A stretch of DNA of 64,000 bases from Candidatus Eiseniibacteriota bacterium (GTDB lineage: Bacteria; Eisenbacteria; RBG-16-71-46; CAZAMP01), in assembly GCA_965224245.1 (NCBI GenBank), contig OZ245046.1:5120001-5184000 (forward strand), written 5' to 3'. Below, one piece after another: positions 46,659 through 56,196 of this stretch. Both the position numbers and the translations under genes were made by a program. Position 1 is the first letter of the stretch; the number at the start of each line of letters is the position of its first letter. Below the pieces are notes generated by a model. The model was given only the letters and a program-made list of their open reading frames with translations, made no database searches and had not been told where the DNA came from.

Positions 46659-46953
46659 GTGAAAGCGTGCTCCTCTCTGGCCCCGAGAACTCCTGGATCC
46701 ACGTGACGGGAATACTACGCTCAGTCACGAGAGCAGGTCACGTCGCGCCGAAGTTGTTGCCGTTTGAGGTCATCCCGACCGCCATCGTTCTCCGTCAGCC
46801 CCGAGTGTGATTCCGATCGTCCCGCCGCGCCTCACGATCGGAATGGGGCGCGGCCTCGCGATCGATCCTCGGCTCGCTTCCGATGCCGCGCACGTCGATC
46901 AATGTTCGATCAGGGATGGCGCGACCCAGGCGCCTCCGAGCTGGAGTGATCCC

Positions 46954-49911
46954 ATGCACACGTCTTCTGTCATTCGGGTACGGCCTTCCGGCCTCCTGGC
47001 CCTGGGGGCCCTGTTCGTCGCGGGGGTGGCGGTGGCCGGCCCCCGCCTGTCCGATCGGGCTCCGGACGACGTCCCGTCGCGGGACGTGATGGCGGCGATC
47101 TCGCGTCCGGATCCATCCGTCCTGCCTCCCCATGGATACGGGAGCCTCGTCCGTCTCTTGATGCAGAACCGGACGGACGTCCGGTCGGGGCTCCTGACCG
47201 AGGCCGAGGCGGCGGCCCGCGGAGGCACCGCGATCGCGGGGAGCCGGGCCTTTCCCGTGTTCCCGTTCCTGTACGACAACACGGGGTCCGCGCCCTTCTC
47301 GCAGGACGACCTCGAGGATCAGCTCTTCACCGGCCCCTGGCCCACGGGAACGATGAAGGAGTACTACGAGGAGGTGTCCTACGGGCTGTTCTCGGTGACC
47401 GGTCACGTGGAGGACTGGTTCACGCTGGACCACGACGACGACTACTACGAGGGCTTCAACAACGGCCTCGACGTGGACGGGAACGTCTACGAGGCGATGG
47501 TCGACATCCTCGATGACCGGGATCCGGGTCTCGACTTCGGTCTCTGGGACAACGACGGTCCGGACGGCGTGCCCAACTCCGGCGACGACGACGGCTACGT
47601 GGACTTCATCATGTTCGTGACCCCCGACCCGAGCGGCGCCTGCGGGGACAACGACAACATCTGGTCCCACACCTGGTTCCTCAGCGGGTGGGGTACCCAC
47701 TACGAGACCGACGACGCGGCCGCCGCCGCGGGGGTGGCCAACATCCGGATCGATCACTACTTCATGTCCGCCGGCATCGACTGCACGCTGCCCCGGCAGC
47801 GCGGCATCGGCACGCACTGTCACGAGTTCGGGCATGCGCTGGGGCTGCCGGACCTCTACGACACCGATGGTGGCTCCGAGGGCATCGGCGACTGGGGCCT
47901 GATGGGCAACGGCAACAACAATACCCAGGATCGTCCGGCTCACTTCACGGCGTTCCACAAGGAGCGCCTGGGATGGCTGCATTACTACGACGTGACCCAG
48001 GACGCCACGCACCTCTGCGTGCCGCCGGTGGAGACTCATCCGGCCGCGGTGCGGCTGTGGACACACGGCCGCGTGGGTGACGAGTACTTCCTGGTCGAGA
48101 ATCGCCAGCAGATCGGATTCGACGACCAGGTCCACGGCACGGGGTTCGTGATCTATCACGTGGACGAACGCGTGTACGCGGCCAATCTCCACGACAACGC
48201 CGTGAACACGGACGAGGCGCACAAGGCCGTCGACGTGGAGTGCGCCGACGCCACCACGGCCGCCCACGTGGCCGACGCCGACGACCTCGACCGGCGTGCG
48301 AACGAAGGCGACGCGGGTGACGTGTGGTGTCCGGCGACGGAGGACACGTTCGACGACACGAGCGTGCCCGACACGCGATCGTGCTCCGGCGGATCCACCG
48401 AGGTCTCCATCCAGAACATCGACGCCTGCACCGGCGTCGTGTGCGCCGACTTCAACGTGGGGAGCGCCTACGTGGCCGATCTCTGCATCCGTGATTGCGT
48501 GAGCGACGGCTGCGACGAGCTCTCACTCTGCGAAGGGTGGTGGGGGAGTCCCGACATCTGGATCGACAACGACGGCGACGGCGTCAGCGATCTTCCGGCC
48601 GACGCCCTCGAGAACGACCTCTGGTTCCGCATCCGGAACGTCGGGCCGGAGCCCCTCAGCGACGTCACCGTGAGCCTCTACTACGGGGACCCGGCGATGG
48701 GTCAGCTCTGGCCGTCTTTCGGTACCTTGATCGAGTCCCGATCGGTGACGTCGATCGACGTGGGTGAGGTGGTGGAGGACTACGTTCCGTTCGTCTATCC
48801 AGCACCGCCGGTCTACGTGGATCACTACTGCATCGGCGCGGTGGTGACACACGAGCTCGACCCGCAGAACAGCGAGTACCCGCCGAACGACAACAACGTG
48901 GCGCAGGTGAACCACCAGGTGCTCGTGAACCGAGCAGGCGGAAGCCTGCTGGCCGCCGGCTGCGGTCCCTTCGTCGAGAAGTCGCGCATCCTGCTGCACG
49001 CCCCGGACGACTACGCGCACGCGGTCGTACGGCTCGGTACGCCGCCGACGTTCGCCGACTACTCGATCCCGCCGGACTGGACCGTGAGCTTCGACCCGGG
49101 ACCTTACGACATCTACGGGACACCCGTGCCGTTCAACCTGACGGTGGAGTCCACGGAAACGACCCACCGTCAGATGGCGCGCATCCCGCTCACGCTGTGG
49201 GATCTGCAGCAGGGCCGCGCGATCGGTGGCGTTCTGATGAACTACGTGATCGACTGCTCCGCACCGAAGCAGGTCGGGGGCCGCGGCGCCGAGTGGCTCT
49301 CTCCGCACGGTGATTATCTCATCGGACCCACCGTGCTCGTGGAGTGGGATCGAGTCACCTCGGACGAGGACGGAGAGCCCGAGATCATCACGCACTACGA
49401 GGTGCAACGCTCGGATGATCACGGTACGCCGTGGACGACCGTGGAGCGCGTGGCGGTGGACGCGGAGCTGGAGATGCCGTGGTTTCAGTGGTACGACGAT
49501 CTCACGAAGACCTGCGACGTCGAGTACTACTATCGTGTACGCGGCGTGGACGCGGCCGGGTCGGTCGGCGCTTACTCCGCGACCATGACGCTGGCTTGCG
49601 AGCCCTTGGACGTGGCGGACACGCCCGGCGCGGTCGGATGGCAGCTCGACGCCGGCACGCCGAACCCGTTCCGGGGGCCGACGGAGATCCGGTACGGGGT
49701 TCCGGTGGCAGGGCCGATCCGACTGGACGTCTTCGACGTGCACGGGCGCCGCGTGCGATCCCTGGTGAACGGCGTCCGGGAGGTCGGTGAGTTCGCCGTG
49801 ACGTGGGACGGCCGCGACGACGGCGGTCGGGACGTGGAGCCGGGGATCTACTTCCATCGTCTCCGCGCGGGCGAGACGACCCTGACCCGGAAGACGACCC
49901 GGGTCGAGTGA
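46954..49911 (+). CDS. Secreted M6 (immune inhibitor A-like) metalloprotease with FlgD-Ig/T9SS-A-like tail
   Basis: YYEEVSYG, DNDGPDG.PNSGDDDG, IWSH, HEFGHALGLPDLYD, EYFLVENR; tail PNPF…WDGRDD…GIYF. Confidence 0.92.
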   Translation: MHTSSVIRVRPSGLLALGALFVAGVAVAGPRLSDRAPDDVPSRDVMAAISRPDPSVLPPHGYGSLVRLLMQNRTDVRSGLLTEAEAAARGGTAIAGSRAFPVFPFLYDNTGSAPFSQDDLEDQLFTGPWPTGTMKEYYEEVSYGLFSVTGHVEDWFTLDHDDDYYEGFNNGLDVDGNVYEAMVDILDDRDPGLDFGLWDNDGPDGVPNSGDDDGYVDFIMFVTPDPSGACGDNDNIWSHTWFLSGWGTHYETDDAAAAAGVANIRIDHYFMSAGIDCTLPRQRGIGTHCHEFGHALGLPDLYDTDGGSEGIGDWGLMGNGNNNTQDRPAHFTAFHKERLGWLHYYDVTQDATHLCVPPVETHPAAVRLWTHGRVGDEYFLVENRQQIGFDDQVHGTGFVIYHVDERVYAANLHDNAVNTDEAHKAVDVECADATTAAHVADADDLDRRANEGDAGDVWCPATEDTFDDTSVPDTRSCSGGSTEVSIQNIDACTGVVCADFNVGSAYVADLCIRDCVSDGCDELSLCEGWWGSPDIWIDNDGDGVSDLPADALENDLWFRIRNVGPEPLSDVTVSLYYGDPAMGQLWPSFGTLIESRSVTSIDVGEVVEDYVPFVYPAPPVYVDHYCIGAVVTHELDPQNSEYPPNDNNVAQVNHQVLVNRAGGSLLAAGCGPFVEKSRILLHAPDDYAHAVVRLGTPPTFADYSIPPDWTVSFDPGPYDIYGTPVPFNLTVESTETTHRQMARIPLTLWDLQQGRAIGGVLMNYVIDCSAPKQVGGRGAEWLSPHGDYLIGPTVLVEWDRVTSDEDGEPEIITHYEVQRSDDHGTPWTTVERVAVDAELEMPWFQWYDDLTKTCDVEYYYRVRGVDAAGSVGAYSATMTLACEPLDVADTPGAVGWQLDAGTPNPFRGPTEIRYGVPVAGPIRLDVFDVHGRRVRSLVNGVREVGEFAVTWDGRDDGGRDVEPGIYFHRLRAGETTLTRKTTRVE

Positions 49912-50220
49912 GCGCGCGGTGGGGGTCCACGTCGCCGGGCGTGTGAGCCGCCATCCGTGGCGGCTTCGGTGGCACGAGCCCGAACGACGCGTGTATCATG
50001 CACGAGCGGATGCCGATCGCCTCAGAATGAGGGTCGTGGGCCCGACGTTCGTCGGTCCCCGACCGGACGACGCCATGGACGCGCCGATGAAGACGATGAC
50101 ATTCCTCGCGAGCGTGTCCATTCGTTCACCTCGGCCACGGCTCGTGGTGGTCGCTGGCAGCGCGTGCGCCTGGTCACCCGGGGTGCCGGGCTTCGGCTCG
50201 ATGGCGGGCGGCGACGTCCG

Positions 50221-51573
50221 ATGACGCGCGGTGTGCTCCACCACGCCGCGCGATACCCGAGCGCGTGGCTCCTGATCGTCGTCGCCGTCTTCTCTGCGCT
50301 CTCGGCATTCGCGCGATCCGATCGCGCACCGGGCGCCGACTTCTATCAGTTCTGGGTCGTCGGGCAGTCCATTCGCGCCGGAGGCCCCCACGACGTGTAC
50401 TCGGATGCCGCTCGTCGGCAGCTGGGTGCCGAGGCGCGCAGCCAGGCGCAGTCGGAGCCTGACTCGCGTCGCGAGGTGATCTCGCGTCATCGCATGGTGC
50501 TCGAGACGTACTCGTCCCCACTGCTCTACACGCTCTTTGCCGCCTTCTCCGGCGGATCCTACGACGAGGACCTCCGTCGTCTTCGATGGGGGACGATCGC
50601 GGCCACGGTCGCCAGCCTGCTGGTCTTCGGCATGGCGGTGGGACACGGCTCGACGTCGCTGGCGATCTTCGTCCTCGCGTTCACGGCCTGGTACGGCCCG
50701 CTCGATTCCGAGCTACGGGTCGGCAACGTGAACACGCTCCTGATGCTCGTCGCCGCGGCGATGATCGCGGCGGCGGGCCGCACCCCCCGCGGACGCTGGG
50801 GCGTGATCCGCGGTGTCGCACTCGGCGCCGGGATCGCGTTCAAGCCGACGCTGCTGGGCGTGCTCGGCCTCGTGCTGCTGGACCGGCTGGTCGGCCGGCG
50901 CTGGTGGGACGCGCGGGCCGAGGCGATCGGCGTACTGGTCGGAGTCACCATCGGCGTGGTCGTCGGCGCGATCGGACTCGGTCCCGGCGCGTGGATCGCG
51001 TGGCTCGGGGCACTCGCCACGCTACCCGACACCATCATCGGCATCCAGGCCGGCAACTTCTCCCTCGCACGCCTGGTCGGCGACGCGATCGGAGACGGTG
51101 CCGCACTCGCCGCGCGGGTGGCCGTGGTCTCGGTCGCGTGCGTCGCGACGTGGCGTGCGGCGCGTGCCCGGCGCTCGAACACCGCCCTCGACGGCGTCGG
51201 AGCCGCGCCGGCGGCGCGATCGCCCGATCGAGAGCACGACGTCGCGGTGACCGCGCTCGCCCTTCTGACGACCGTTCTGGTCTCGCGGCTGTCGTGGCTC
51301 CACTACTACGTACTGGCGGCTCCAGCTTTCGTGTATCTGCTGCGACCTCGCGCGTCCTCGGCGTCGATGGGATCGGCCGCGAGCTCGATCACGATCGCGT
51401 TCACGCTGGCGGGGTTCTGCTGCGTGGCCGTGAGCCCGGCCCCGCTGCTCGGCCTCCGGCTGCAGCCCGAAGGGCTCGCCGTGATGACGATCCTGGGCGC
51501 GACGCTTCTGTTCGCCTCGCTGTCCGCCGACCTGCTCGGCGCGAGCCCGCGCGAGGCTCAGCGTAACCGGTAG
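50221..51573 (+). CDS. GT87/DUF2029-like membrane glycosyltransferase (GT-C fold)
   Basis: DFYQFW, YSSP, GNVN, AFKP, GNFSL, SWLHY motifs; multi-TM. Confidence 0.75.
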   Translation: MTRGVLHHAARYPSAWLLIVVAVFSALSAFARSDRAPGADFYQFWVVGQSIRAGGPHDVYSDAARRQLGAEARSQAQSEPDSRREVISRHRMVLETYSSPLLYTLFAAFSGGSYDEDLRRLRWGTIAATVASLLVFGMAVGHGSTSLAIFVLAFTAWYGPLDSELRVGNVNTLLMLVAAAMIAAAGRTPRGRWGVIRGVALGAGIAFKPTLLGVLGLVLLDRLVGRRWWDARAEAIGVLVGVTIGVVVGAIGLGPGAWIAWLGALATLPDTIIGIQAGNFSLARLVGDAIGDGAALAARVAVVSVACVATWRAARARRSNTALDGVGAAPAARSPDREHDVAVTALALLTTVLVSRLSWLHYYVLAAPAFVYLLRPRASSASMGSAASSITIAFTLAGFCCVAVSPAPLLGLRLQPEGLAVMTILGATLLFASLSADLLGASPREAQRNR

Positions 51574-53216
51574 ATGATGTACTCGTCGCGTCCGGCGGGG
51601 CCGATCACGAATGGCAGTGGGCCGACGGCGCTGGAGTAGAAGCCGGCGCCGACGTCCCAGCACGTGGTCTGGATCCAGCGACGGTCCACCGTCACGAGGT
51701 CGATGCGGGAGGCGACTGTCTCATCGGGAAGAAAGACATGAGCGTTGCTGCGAGGGACGACGAGACGATCGCCCCGGACGCCGATGGGCCGGCGGGAGTC
51801 CTCGTGAACGGCGCCGCCCCGTTCCATGTAGTACTGGAAGCCCCAGTGTCCGAAGAACAGTGTCCGCTCTCCGCGGGTGACCGCGAGCGAGCGAGCCGCT
51901 CGGCGAACGTCGTTCGCCCACACCATGTCGCCCCACGCCACGACGGCGGCCACCGCGAACGCCGGCACGAGACGCAGTCCGGAGCGGAAGCGCCGCCAGT
52001 CGATCCGTGCCAGCTCCGGGCGCCGGGCCAGGACGATGGCCATTGCCGGCACCAGAGGCAGAATCGAGCGCCCGTTGTTCGACCAGTTGACGTACGTCGC
52101 GAAGAAGGCGGTTCCGCCGATCCACGCGGCCAGGAGAATGGCCGTCGGCGACCCCCGCTGTCGGAGGACGTCCTCGACCGTGGTCCAGACGACGGCCAAC
52201 CCCGCGAGCAGGAACACACCCAGCTGTAGCGTGTGGTGCCAGCGCGCAATCCGTACGATCCCCGGTGCATCGTACAGGCGCTGGGCGAAGGCGGCGGCGA
52301 CCAGCGCGCTCCCGAGGGTCAGGGCGATCCTCCAGCGCCACGGCCAACGACAGAAGGCGACCGGCAGCGCCACCAGTACGCATCCGCCGAGGAACGCGAG
52401 TCCGACGACGGTCTGATCGACGACCGTGAGCGGAGTGCGTCGTCCCGCGGCGTAGAGCGCGGCCTCGAAGAAGAGCCCGCGTCCGTACATGGCGCGGGTC
52501 AGCATCTCGTAGCCGAGCCACATCCCGAGCGGGAGGGCGAGCGGCGGCAGCCACACCGCCAGGCGTCGGGTCCGGAGGAGCGCGTAGAGCACGAGGAGCG
52601 GCAGCAGCGCCACCGCGAAGTACTTCGTCAGCGCCGCCACCCCGCACAGTGCGGCCGCGAGCACGAGACGACGAAGCGTCCGCCCGTCCGCCGGGTCGCC
52701 ACCCGCCAGGCTGTCGATTCCTCGCATCCACAGCCACAGCGACGGCAACCAGAGTGCGAGCATCGAGACGTCGCACATGATGGTCGTGCTGGACACCAGG
52801 AACGCCGGCGTAGCCGTCGCCACGAGCGCCGCAAGCAGCGGCGCGGCGCCCATGCGTGCGGCCAGGAGATACACGAAAACCATCGAGACGAGCGCCGGCA
52901 CCATGAAGCCGAGATGACACGCGATCTCGGACCACCCGAAGACCGCGGTGACCGCGGCGAGATAGTAGCCCGCCAGCGGGGGGTTCCTCGTGACGTCGAA
53001 CATCGGCGCGGCGTATCCGTACCAGTTCACGTCGAAGCCAAAGAAGTCGCCGGGACTGGCATGGATCTGCCTTGCCAGTGCCAGGAACAGCGTATCGTCG
53101 ATCGTGAATGCCTTGTTCACGAACGGCAGGTGAACCGCCAGTCCGATGACCACGACGAGGAGGAGCTGGCGTCTCGAGCGCGCGACGCCCGTCATGTCAG
53201 CTCCGTCCGCGCTCAC
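51558..53216 (-). CDS. GT39/ArnT(GT83)-like membrane glycosyltransferase (GT-C fold)
   Basis: AFTIDD in first loop, NPPL, MCD, ALTKY, RSILP; multi-TM. Confidence 0.8.
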   Translation of the reverse strand: MSADGADMTGVARSRRQLLLVVVIGLAVHLPFVNKAFTIDDTLFLALARQIHASPGDFFGFDVNWYGYAAPMFDVTRNPPLAGYYLAAVTAVFGWSEIACHLGFMVPALVSMVFVYLLAARMGAAPLLAALVATATPAFLVSSTTIMCDVSMLALWLPSLWLWMRGIDSLAGGDPADGRTLRRLVLAAALCGVAALTKYFAVALLPLLVLYALLRTRRLAVWLPPLALPLGMWLGYEMLTRAMYGRGLFFEAALYAAGRRTPLTVVDQTVVGLAFLGGCVLVALPVAFCRWPWRWRIALTLGSALVAAAFAQRLYDAPGIVRIARWHHTLQLGVFLLAGLAVVWTTVEDVLRQRGSPTAILLAAWIGGTAFFATYVNWSNNGRSILPLVPAMAIVLARRPELARIDWRRFRSGLRLVPAFAVAAVVAWGDMVWANDVRRAARSLAVTRGERTLFFGHWGFQYYMERGGAVHEDSRRPIGVRGDRLVVPRSNAHVFLPDETVASRIDLVTVDRRWIQTTCWDVGAGFYSSAVGPLPFVIGPAGRDEYIIYRLR

Positions 53217-54201
53217 GGAGGCCCGACACGTACAGCATGCCGAGCGCCGCCACCGCCAGTGTGTTCAAGCGGTAGGCCAGCGCGATGATGCCGCCCGGTC
53301 CATCGTCCGTCCCGCCGAAGAGCGCGAGACCATAGAGCTCCGTCAGTGCCAGCTCCGTCGTGCCCAGCCCGGCCGGCGTGATCGGGAGCGCCGCGATCAG
53401 CGACGCGATCGGCATAATCACGAAGTGATTCGACAGCGAGGGCACCGCGGGGGCGATCGCGGTGGCGACGAGCCAGAGCGCGAGCGCAGAGAGTGCATGA
53501 ACGCCCACGCTCATTGCGAAGGCCAGCGCGACGACCCCCGGCGCTCGTCCGAACGCATGAAGTGACGCGATGAGCTGCCCCACGACTCGTCTGAGGCGGG
53601 AGGACGTCTGATCGTCCCTGCGGTCGACGGGTCGGCTGCCGTGCCACTCCCGCCGGGAGAGCATGGTGAGCACCGCTCCGACGAGAAGCGTCGCGAGGAC
53701 GCTCGCACCCGCCACTGCCGGCATCTCCGATCGGATGTGCGGGCTCGCGACGAGTGCCGCACCGACGAAGATCGCGAGACCATACATGCCCACGATGCGA
53801 TCCATGATCACCGACGCCAGCGCCGCGCCGTGGGACCCGGAGCGCCTTCGGCCCAATGAGGCGGCCTTGAACACGTCGCCGCCGGCGCTCCCGAACGACG
53901 CGAAGCTGAACAGGTAGCCGAGAAAGCCCAGACGGAACGCCTCGCGCAGTGTCAGCCGCAGCCCGAGGGCACGGACCAGGCAGCGCCATCGGATGAAGGT
54001 GACCGACACCGCTGCCAGCAGGGTCACGAGCGCCATCGCGAACGTGACCCCGCTCTTCGGCTGATCTCTGAACCGTCGCCAGTCATCCGGGGGGATGGTC
54101 ATGACCACCCAGGCGAGAATGCCGAACGGAAGGAGTAGCTTCAGCGCGGAGATCGCGGCCGCACGCGTGGACGCTCCGGGCGCACGCGGTCGCTCATCCA
54201 C
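53197..54201 (-). CDS. Lysylphosphatidylglycerol-synthase TM/flippase-like domain protein
   Basis: [30 protein letters not shown]. Confidence 0.85.
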
Positions 54202-55000
54202 CGCGAATGCCCTCGTCGGACGCCGCGGATGACGGCACCGTCACGTCGGCATCCGGCACCACGGGCCGGAATAGTGGGCTCTGGTAGAGGCCAGTGCGCC
54301 AGAGGCGATACTCGAGGGAGGTTCGCAACACGCCGATCCCATATCGACATGCGCGGCGCAGTCCGATCGAGCTCGCCTCGGGAAAGTACTTGGTCGGACA
54401 CGAGATCTCCCCCACGCGGAAGCCGAAGGCGAGGCACTGCGTCAACATCTGATTGTCGAACACGAAGTCGTCGGAGTTGCGCTCGAGCGGCAGCGTCTCC
54501 AGGACGCGGCGCGAGAACGCACGATACCCCGTGTGGAACTCGGAGAGCTTCGACGCCAGGAGGACGTTTTGCACGAGCGTGAGCGCCCGGTTCGAGACCA
54601 GCTTGTACAGCGGCATGCCGCCACTTCTGGCCGTCGCGCCGAGGATGCGAGAGCCGATCACGACGTCGTACACGTCGGAGGCGACCATCCCCGCCATCGG
54701 CGTCACGAGCCGTGGCTCATACTGATAGTCGGGGTGCAGCATCACGACGATGTCGGCACCCAGCCCGAGCGCCTCCCGGTAGCACGTCTTCTGATTCGCA
54801 CCGTACCCTCTGTTCTCCGGGTGTACTATCGTATGAATGCCGAGATGGCGAGCGATGGCCGCGGTGTCGTCGTCGCTTCCATCGTCTACCAGGAGACAGT
54901 GGTCGACGATGTCGTGAGGGATGGCGCGGTGCGTCTTCTCGAGCGTCCGTGCCGCCCGAAAGGCGGGCAAGACGACGACGATTCGCTTGGACGCGAGCAT
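54194..55000 (-). CDS. GT2 glycosyltransferase, polyprenol-phosphate glycosyltransferase-like
   Basis: [44 protein letters not shown] 55000. Confidence 0.92.
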
Positions 55001-55182
55001 TGGTGATCCAGATCCTGGAGACGGGACGTCGCGCGACGGCGGAGGGCCGCGATCTCGAACCCGAGGATGATACCAGAGTACTTCAACCGGGGGACGGCTT
55101 CGGCGAACCGAGGCGCGTCTCGCCGTACGCACGCCCTGCGACGAGCCGACCGCGGAGCACTCGCAGTCGAGGATCGACACCC

Positions 55183-56196
55183 ATGAAGCCACGTTCGAAG
55201 AGATCTCACGCGGCGACGCTGGCGGCGTTGGTCGGGCTGGTGGCCGGCTGCGGGTCGCTCACGGGGCGCCACGACGTCGACGACGAGCTGGCACGTGCCG
55301 GGCCCACGACGATCCGGATCCTGGCCACCGCCCGCACCGATGGCGAGACCGATCCCTGTCCGTGACGGTCGGCGCCCGGACAGGGCGGGCTGGCCCGGCG
55401 GGCCACGCTTCTCGACTCGTTGCGGGCAGAGGATCCGGATCTGCTCGTGGTCGACGCCGGCGACTTCTGCGAGCACGATGGGCCGCTCGCGGTGGAGAAG
55501 AGCGCCTTCATCCTCAGCATGATGCAGGAGATGGGCTACGACGCCGTGGCACTGGGTCCGAGGGAGCTGGCGATCGCCGGCGACCTGTCGCACGCGATCG
55601 AGGATACCCGTGGCATCGTTCTCTCGAACGCGACCGACGCCATCGATCGATCACTCTCGCCTGAGCGCCACGTCGTCAAGCAAGTCGGAGGCACGAGAGT
55701 GGGCGTCTTTGCGCTCGTGCAGCCCGAGGCCGCCGGCGGCTCGGCCGCCGACGCCCTCCCCGAGCTCGTCGCCGCCGCCGAGCGCACGTTGCGAGATCTC
55801 CGCGCGGAGCGAGCCGGCTTCACGGTGCTGCTCTGTCAGCTCGATGCCGTGGTGACGGACACGCTTCTCAGACGGATCACAGGCGTGGACCTGGTCGTGA
55901 TGGGAGACACGCCCGTTGCACGCATTCGGGACCGTATCGAGAGCACCGTGCCCCTGGTCGTGTACCCGGGAGGAAAGGGACGCTCAGTGACGATCGTCGA
56001 CGTGAGCGTCGACGCGTCCGGTACCGTCGTCGACGGCCAGGCCCGGATGGTCCTCCTGAACGCGCACATTCCGCTGGATCCGCGAGTCCACGCGCGGGTC
56101 TCGGTCATGAACGCCCGCATCCGGGAGGAGCGGATGCGGATCTTCCGGGAGAGCCGGGGGCTGGGCGACGGTAGAGAGGTGTCGGACGATCCGTGA
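55183..56196 (+). CDS. Probable selenoprotein: UshA/5'-nucleotidase-like metallophosphoesterase-fold lipoprotein with Sec (TGA 55363-55365)
   Basis: Lipobox [30 protein letters not shown]…LLVVDAGD continues in frame into ORF 55420-56196; hairpin directly 3' of the TGA. Confidence 0.8.
55368..55394 (+). promoter_or_regulatory. Candidate bacterial SECIS element
   Basis: GTCGG-CGCCC[GGACA]GGGCG-gg-CTGGC stem-loop starting 2 nt after the UGA, with G at the first loop position. Confidence 0.55.

Follow-up and report, generated by a model that had tools for sequence, protein, structure and literature searches.

A predicted Cys-Pro-Sec lipoprotein of the UshA-like selenoprotein family in Candidatus Eiseniibacteriota

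In a 64,000-nucleotide stretch of contig OZ245046.1 from Candidatus Eiseniibacteriota (the window, in which all positions are given unless a genome or locus is named), the gene at 55183..56196 (+) was found from its read-through frame and profile matches to encode a haem-less UshA-like protein of 337 aa with one in-frame TGA, which is almost certainly read as selenocysteine. The protein belongs to an already catalogued selenoprotein family; what is new is the proline in its redox loop and a loop that is one residue longer, neither of which was found in any other Sec form. We favour, with a probability of about 0.58, a non-hydrolytic extracytoplasmic selenenylsulfide redox protein that would carry out thiol/persulfide S-S exchange with partners acting in trans. 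Listings of the family go back to at least 2008, but the papers found assign it no function; it is tabulated as 'COG0737, UshA-like, CxU' (PMC2398784) and as 'UshA-like protein, NF041198, CxU' (PMC13188914). Here, the gene represents a natural domain deletion, a Sec loop under selection without any haem, and it offers a small single-domain construct for studying C-x-U function; it is a modest variant and not a new system.

The gene starts with an ATG at 55183, passes through an internal TGA at 55363-55365 and ends with a TGA at 56194-56196, in a single frame throughout, with GC3 values of 0.85 on one side of the internal TGA and 0.84 on the other. The gene-caller pieces, which are also the entries of the protein collection, are two fragments of 60 aa (P0019) and 249 aa (P0003). 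In the read-through protein, GETDPCP-TGA continues in the same frame as [14 protein letters not shown]...DAGD; numbered by residue, DPC59-P60-U61 is followed by [13 protein letters not shown] and then by DAGD. A Shine-Dalgarno-like GAGGA can be read in the sequence at 55169..55173 (+), 9 nt ahead of the ATG, and a scan for promoters and terminators returned 0 of each. The N-terminus is composed of the basic segment MKPRSKR, the hydrophobic core [11 protein letters not shown] and the lipobox AG/C23, i.e. the basic N-region, hydrophobic core and lipobox Cys by which bacterial lipoproteins are recognized. By motif reading, the signal peptide with lipobox LVAG/C occupies 55183..55251 (+), Cys23 being encoded at 55249-55251, and the lipobox supports the prediction that the product is an exported lipoprotein; the same pattern is matched by both neighbours in the tree described below. 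A first-pass annotation had described an exported protein whose lipoprotein N-terminus runs through the TGA of a split gene, and both points were borne out by the single frame and by Cys23.

Regarding the reliability of the letters, Logan contigs from two runs of one sample matched a 1601-base stretch with 0 differences, where that sample may itself be the source of the window. From a second sample taken in that study, one contig covered 55259-55417, again with 0 differences, including the Cys-Pro-TGA codons; contig X5 spans 55366-55516 only, i.e. without the TGA. None of the sequencing runs listed as containing the sequence was of RNA. Since the letters are identical in these contigs, including that of the second sample, an assembly error is excluded for the internal TGA. 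It can also be observed that the protein carries two extra cysteines, Cys96 after DAGDF (55468-55470) and Cys218 (55834-55836) at the S/A of the LSH/LSQ motif beside the former metal site; in homologues, Cys lies outside the six commonest residues at each of these columns.

The C59-P60-U61 motif is located at 55357..55365 (+) with the codons TGT CCG TGA, the TGA being assigned as the Sec codon from the homologue column, and its letters recurring in the second sample. At the U61 column the homologues have Cys or TGA. The genome, which is 97% complete, contains selA, selB and selD above their cut-offs and a tRNA-Sec (selC), and its selD carries an in-frame TGA of its own. The initial claim of a hidden selenoprotein is therefore upheld by the complete selA/B/C/D set, by the homologue column and by covariation in the SECIS, which is described next. 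The upper hairpin of this element lies at 55391..55405 (+), where a 6-bp stem closed by a GGC triloop (55397-55399) overlaps the L-A-R-R-A codons; it was delimited by pair probability and covariation. The stem has a pair probability of 0.95-1.0 in three sequence contexts, and its triloop is 31 nt downstream of the UGA, compared with 25 and 28 nt in two CGU paralogues. In the bSECIS model, the apical loop lies 16-37 nt after the UGA, with G at the first two loop positions (PMC13188914); the GGC loop, 31-nt spacing and 6-bp stem of the target fit this description.

Comparison across the family gave the clearest picture of the element. The set contained 83 motif-bearing homologues from protein-search loci, 49 Sec and 34 Cys forms, the latter reduced to 32 by removal of two spurious ORFs; the selA/B/D loci, the unpublished G053 (L032) and the loci derived from the SECIS pattern itself (L046-L063, L070-L099) had been left out before counting. 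A five-pair stem round a GG/GT triloop was complete in 49/49 Sec forms and in 0/32 Cys forms. The codons GCC CGG MGG were used in 45/49 Sec forms, compared with 0/8 Cys forms that have ARR and 55/1573 ARR peptides genome-wide. Moreover, the outermost of the five pairs joins two wobble positions and occurs as G-C 23 times, C-G 15, G-U 7, U-G 2, U-A 1 and A-U 1, i.e. it is paired in 49/49 rows, where shuffling gave a mean of 25.4 and 0/10,000 shuffles reached this value, a test that overstates significance because the compared rows are related. A 6-bp hairpin with a GG/GT triloop in the same interval follows only 22 of 1927 (1.1%) ordinary-looking TGA stops of the genome, which places that of the target beyond chance. 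Compensatory synonymous changes now define the family SECIS, so that a gene which callers split can be re-annotated reliably. The SECIS-like hairpin first proposed after the UGA was thus retained in part: the small hairpin at 55391-55405 is conserved, but the long hairpin is no more stable than shuffled sequence. The 63 nt after the UGA, folded as a whole, gave z = -0.98 with 31/200 shuffles equally good, and whole-hairpin stability was rejected as SECIS evidence. A second GC-rich hairpin at 55372-55386, with a GGACA loop 12 nt past the UGA, could influence read-through efficiency; it is predicted only when upstream sequence is omitted (P 0.96-0.99 versus 0.02), and it was not taken as the SECIS.

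Among known families, the target falls within the broad UshA-like CxU class (COG0737-like), having the 5'-nucleotidase-like N-domain and the C-x-U/C ahead of GG-x-ARR. Its best NCBIfam match is NF041198 (UshA_like_PCGU), with E 5e-23 over model positions 20-290 of 519 and 81.4 bits against a cut-off of 275, a cut-off that no match in the genome passed, haem-bearing paralogues included. With the CGU forms of this model the target shares the C-x-U before GG-ARR, the degenerate 5'-nucleotidase domain, the export signal and the SECIS. The multihaem region (model positions about 350-517), which the paralogues match at 352-517, is missing, and the P-C-P-U of the target agrees with P-C-G-U at P, C and U and differs at Gly. 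Furthermore, the target differs from the NF041198 forms in lacking the tetrahaem c554 domain, in having six residues from U to GG, and in being a solitary gene away from the lptD-linked locus of the phylum. NF049981 (UshA-like selenoprotein family 2) has the same fold in a haem-less model of 262 positions and was matched with E 5e-16 at 59 bits, below its cut-off of 140; this family is listed with a CxxU motif (PMC13188914), whereas that of the target is CxU. The match to the SoxB thiosulfohydrolase model TIGR04486 reached 40 bits against a cut-off of 550.

The fold assigned by AlphaFold2 and structural matching, at 55297..56151 (+), is the N-terminal (calcineurin-like) domain of a 5'-nucleotidase with a degenerate dimetal site, ending in a linker helix. 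For residues 39-323, the model has a pLDDT of 93.5 and a pTM of 0.92, and the block containing the C-P-U loop, modelled with Cys in place of Sec, a pLDDT of 93. The model matched the 5'-nucleotidase N-domain of 2z1a with Z = 31.9 and an rmsd of 3.0 over 274 residues, and SoxB with Z = 28.0, the UshA/SoxB range being Z 28-32. With UshA/CD73 5'-nucleotidases and SoxB the target has in common this N-terminal domain, DAGD and GG-ARR; unlike them, it has lost the dimetal ligands and the catalytic His, has no C-terminal substrate-binding domain, and carries Cys-Pro-Sec after motif I. The dimetal ligand set of UshA/CD73 is taken to be D-x-H, GD, GNH, H and GHxH, of which the target keeps just the Asp of DAGD. 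On the ligand roles that we presume from the UshA literature, the canonical positions map to R51, D53, D94, P126, Q219, D242 and P244, the catalytic His corresponds to R127, and in the alignment Asp94 alone is kept among the seven, TARTDG standing for motif I and GPRE for GNHE. Sequence and model together show a 5'-nucleotidase N-domain fold without its dimetal centre, and the protein is probably non-hydrolytic, as had been proposed at the outset; D94 as the only canonical ligand kept supports this. Pfam gave 0 families at E 0.1 on the read-through protein, so that the C-terminal substrate-binding domain PF02872 is likewise unmatched, and the haem motif CxxCH is absent. The chain ends past a long helix (262-284) which in a fused homologue (helix 260-295, AlphaFold model with pTM 0.80) continues to the haem domain. 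When residues specific to haem forms were sought as marks of a domain interface, nothing clear emerged beyond P58, A71, G132 and L292. A complex predicted for the tandem Cys/Cys pair of another genome (G016; haem-bearing and haem-less chains with 4 haems) scored 0.03 against a mark of 0.32.

It should be asked which of these features belong to the target and which to the family. The survey used the best 150 of 3147 representative matches, leaving 148 homologues once the target's own fragments were removed. Among these best matches, 108 of the 148 have C-x-C ahead of GG (68 CGC, 40 other, 0 CPC), and CxxCH is absent from 83 of the 108, although fragments may be among these, and splitting of the Sec forms leaves them under-represented. 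Of the 49 Sec forms, 12 are haem-less. The most conserved residues of the family are C59 and C/U61, and Asp91, Gly93 and Glu/Asp128 are conserved as well, whereas the metal-ligand columns vary; at the GNHE column of the 148 homologues, Asn at position 2 and His at position 3 lie outside the six commonest residues, and the sister paralogue, the closest one, has LATARVDG, sharing LATAR-x-DG with the target. Since the metal-ligand columns vary and the haem domain is often absent, both losses are ordinary for UshA-like proteins. The first-pass annotation was therefore right that motif I and GNHE have given way to TARTDG and GPRE and that neither a nucleotidase C-domain nor a haem domain is present, but these features are not peculiar to this gene. 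By contrast, its view that proline is unusual stands: CPC occurs in 0/108 CxC matches, the other 48 of 49 Sec forms have CGU, and among the Sec forms Pro is found solely in the target, which also has six residues between U and GG, compared with four or five in the other 48.

When GTDB, JGI metagenomes and 206 related genomes were scanned with exact patterns, no second C-P-U gene was found; such scans overlook genes with other codons or motifs, so that CPU is 'not found' and not 'absent'. The GTDB scan returned 13 matches, including 3 real UshA-like genes (CTU, CLU and CDU) and three CP matches that were dismissed as chance; all 5 JGI matches were out of frame and were rejected; and the 5 matches in the 206 genomes of the phylum were the target, one CTU gene and three out of frame. 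The middle position of the motif therefore accepts residues other than Gly, as in 40/108 CxC homologues and in the CTU, CLU and CDU Sec loci. These loci (L046, L050 and L053, with C-T-U, C-L-U and C-D-U) use the same SECIS codons, and two of them are haem-less; the CTU match of the phylum scan has a motif string identical to that of a locus from Candidatus Eisenbacteria.

The family is widespread in the phylum. Homologues were found in 60/61 genomes searched, and a Sec-form pattern, which in practice finds CGU, matched 193/206 genomes of the class compared with about 29 for a reversed control, from which a few of the pattern matches are taken to be chance; both tallies include the unpublished G053, although no claim depends on that genome alone. 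The target genome itself holds six paralogues: two with CGU and 4 CxxCH, two with CGC and 4 CxxCH, a haem-less CGC form and a haem-less CDC form. They are located outside the window at G000 C1:2359945+, 2987924-, 2989551-, 5244199-, 5533006+ and 775916-, and two of these form a tandem behind accD-folC-ROK-lptD. A 98-row tree places the target with C1:2359945 of its own genome and L017 of the only other genome of its taxonomic family (support 100/98), both CGU lipoproteins with a tetrahaem domain, and the clade was retained after the motif and SECIS segment had been removed (SH-aLRT 97; quick search on 92 rows, six divergent or duplicate rows being omitted). This placement with two Cys-Gly-Sec tetrahaem genes leads to a conclusion that is well supported by the tree and is its most economical reading, namely that the target is a duplicate of the Cys-Gly-Sec plus tetrahaem c554 gene of the phylum, having lost the cytochrome domain just past the linker helix. 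The end branch of the target is 1.23-1.33 changes per site across both trees, and no close orthologue was found, the best non-self matches being about 35-37% identical. Retention of the UGA and the SECIS over this long branch implies selection on Sec insertion and argues against a pseudogene. Loss of the haem domain recurs across the phylum, whose other families also contain haem-less Sec forms, and the 98-row tree includes sister pairs of a haem-bearing and a haem-less gene in tandem. In the 92-row tree, haem state must have changed at least 22 times and Sec state at least 17 times over the 89 labelled rows, with weak support for several branches. The c554-like domain of the fused relatives (alignment A2, L171:6456-7724 and relatives) has four CxxCH but just three further conserved His, and one haem may thus be open, i.e. 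without a distal His, or ligated by Cys/Sec.

On the favoured redox reading, the former nucleotidase domain would serve as a scaffold on which the C59-P60-U61 loop is displayed next to the emptied active site. Outside the cytoplasmic membrane, Sec61 would attack an S-S bond, either of a protein disulfide or of a persulfide/polysulfide, and Cys59 would resolve the adduct as a selenenylsulfide. Fused relatives, which carry the c554 haem domain, an electron-transfer module, would exchange electrons with their own haems; the target would be recycled in trans, by one of the four haem-bearing paralogues or by a thioredoxin-like protein. Pro60 and the longer loop probably retune the redox potential or the choice of partner. 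This reading is preferred because C59 and U61 are invariant where the metal ligands vary, because the ancestral protein includes a fused electron-transfer domain, and because Mia40 and MccSep provide a precedent. That sulfane sulfur specifically is the substrate is a tentative proposal, which we regard as doubtful. Among the analogues, MccSep (ExtKL) of Geobacter is described as a haem and Sec enzyme that reduces polysulfide (PMC13510729). It resembles the target in being an exported Sec enzyme, and the haem-bearing relatives of the target likewise pair Sec with c-type haems; it differs in being a five-haem protein with a His/Cys haem, whereas the target has none, and the main text of that paper makes no mention of UshA, c554 or nucleotidase (PMC13510729). 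The CPC of Mia40/CHCHD4 is an exposed redox pair and indicates that CxC redox chemistry tolerates Pro, although with its twin CX9C helices, eukaryotic origin and lack of Sec that protein provides an analogy only (PMC8069373). Neither Mia40 nor MccSep is shown to be homologous to the target; MccSep is a functional analogue and Mia40 a motif analogue.

Counted against the redox reading are the outcome of a search of mainly open-access literature, in which neither a functional study of the UshA-like family nor any mention of a CPU form was found, the lack in the target of a haem and of an adjoining redox or sulfur gene, the failure to find a CPU orthologue that would show Pro to be conserved across lineages, and the fact that a Cys-x-Sec pair can equally well bind metal. 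The latter underlies a metal-binding lipoprotein, in which C59 and U61 would ligate a soft metal or Fe-S cluster, possibly aided by Asp94/Glu128 or another monomer; its role would be in sensing, delivery or detoxification, and S-S exchange would not be catalysed. The fold that bears the loop held metals ancestrally, Asp91, Gly93 and Glu/Asp128 are conserved, and the CPC of Mia40 is proposed to hold a 2Fe-2S cluster as a dimer (PMC8069373); however, fusion of the ancestral form to four c-type haems points to electron transfer, and no metal-transport or resistance gene adjoins the target, and we consider metal binding unlikely. A remodelled hydrolase or transferase, with one metal or none and Sec61 as a nucleophile forming a covalent intermediate on a SoxB-like S-sulfonate, a thioester or a phosphoester, is improbable. 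The fold common to UshA and SoxB, the weak SoxB HMM match, Asp94 of DAGD and the retained GG-ARR arginines would fit such an enzyme, but six of the seven canonical ligand positions and the catalytic His, with roles taken as above, are replaced, the columns vary across the family, and the SECIS places its own constraint on the arginine codons.

The long end branch and the low identity of the best matches, together with replacement of the otherwise invariant Gly60 and lengthening of the loop, could also be read as relaxed selection on a decaying duplicate or a true stop, i.e. a relic of the haem-bearing selenoprotein. Such a relic is hardly to be expected to show an intact frame over 337 codons, normal GC3 and a confidently predicted fold, or to have preserved, at about 65% divergence, the complete SECIS together with the lipobox, the ribosome-binding site and most of the near-invariant family residues, and haem-less Sec forms recur elsewhere in the phylum; we regard decay as very improbable. 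Least credible of all is a functional partnership with the divergent glycosylation genes, e.g. redox control of the GT2/PMT system. It arises from the arrangement of the target, which is solitary and lies head-to-head with GT2, LPG-synthase-TM and PMT_2 genes across a 182-nt gap, confirming the divergent transcription claimed earlier. Nonetheless, no glycosyltransferase family was found beside five paralogue loci (30 proteins scanned) or among the recurring neighbour clusters of 16 relative loci, and nothing was found that links the cluster to the target gene.

On its other side, the target is tail-to-tail with a PEP carboxykinase gene, and no redox, sulfur, metal-transport or resistance gene lies beside it. 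The cluster at 49957-55000 is of the lipid-linked glycosylation type, with GT2, LPG-synthase-TM and PMT_2 on the minus strand and GT87 on the plus strand, and is preceded at 46807-49911 (+) by a gene for an immune-inhibitor-A-like M6 peptidase of 1034 aa with a C-terminal FlgD Ig domain. Around relatives of the target a different setting was observed, in a survey of 16 loci chosen by hand from 14 genomes of one phylum. Here, UshA-like genes are repeatedly found downstream of ROK and an lptD-like gene; further downstream, 10/16 loci have a cystathionine lyase-like gene and 7/16 a cystathionine beta-synthase (CBS) gene. Among the neighbour proteins scanned, there were three CBS, two of them over the cut-off, and three lyase-like proteins, all below every cut-off. 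At L165-L168, L172, L174, L175 and L178-L180, from six families of the phylum, UshA-like genes are directly upstream of a CBS and/or lyase-like gene. At L173, the UshA-like copy follows rhodanese and MauE genes; at L053 (Thermodesulfobacteriota), a class-V aminotransferase and a rhodanese are nearby, and the scanned proteins of the other two non-Gly loci include no such sulfur-type neighbour. The same relative loci also hold unrelated genes (accD, folC, ROK, lptD, mgtE), and the CBS and lyase-like genes of the target genome are far from all seven paralogues. Since a single gene order may have been inherited throughout one phylum, the link to sulfur counts as no more than a lead.

Speculatively, and with a probability that we judge to be low, the UshA-like/c554 selenoprotein that most genomes of the phylum encode could be an unrecognized periplasmic persulfide/polysulfide oxidoreductase serving the adjacent H2S-/persulfide-producing CBS/lyase pair, its C-x-U loop closing on the haem without a distal His. 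The haem-less duplicates would then be repeatedly evolved mobile carriers of sulfur or electrons, and C-P-U the selenium-based bacterial equivalent of the Mia40 CPC oxidase on a dead nucleotidase. Separately, seven other in-frame TGAs with a downstream GG/GT-loop hairpin were observed in the genome (G000 C1:4218211+, 4437671+, 4920231-, 5730843-, 2704515-, 308150+ and 2464458+). SelD is among them, two of the seven carry no assignment, and the motifs, as we presume them to be, point to deiodinase-like, TlpA-like, SelW-like and thioredoxin-like proteins.
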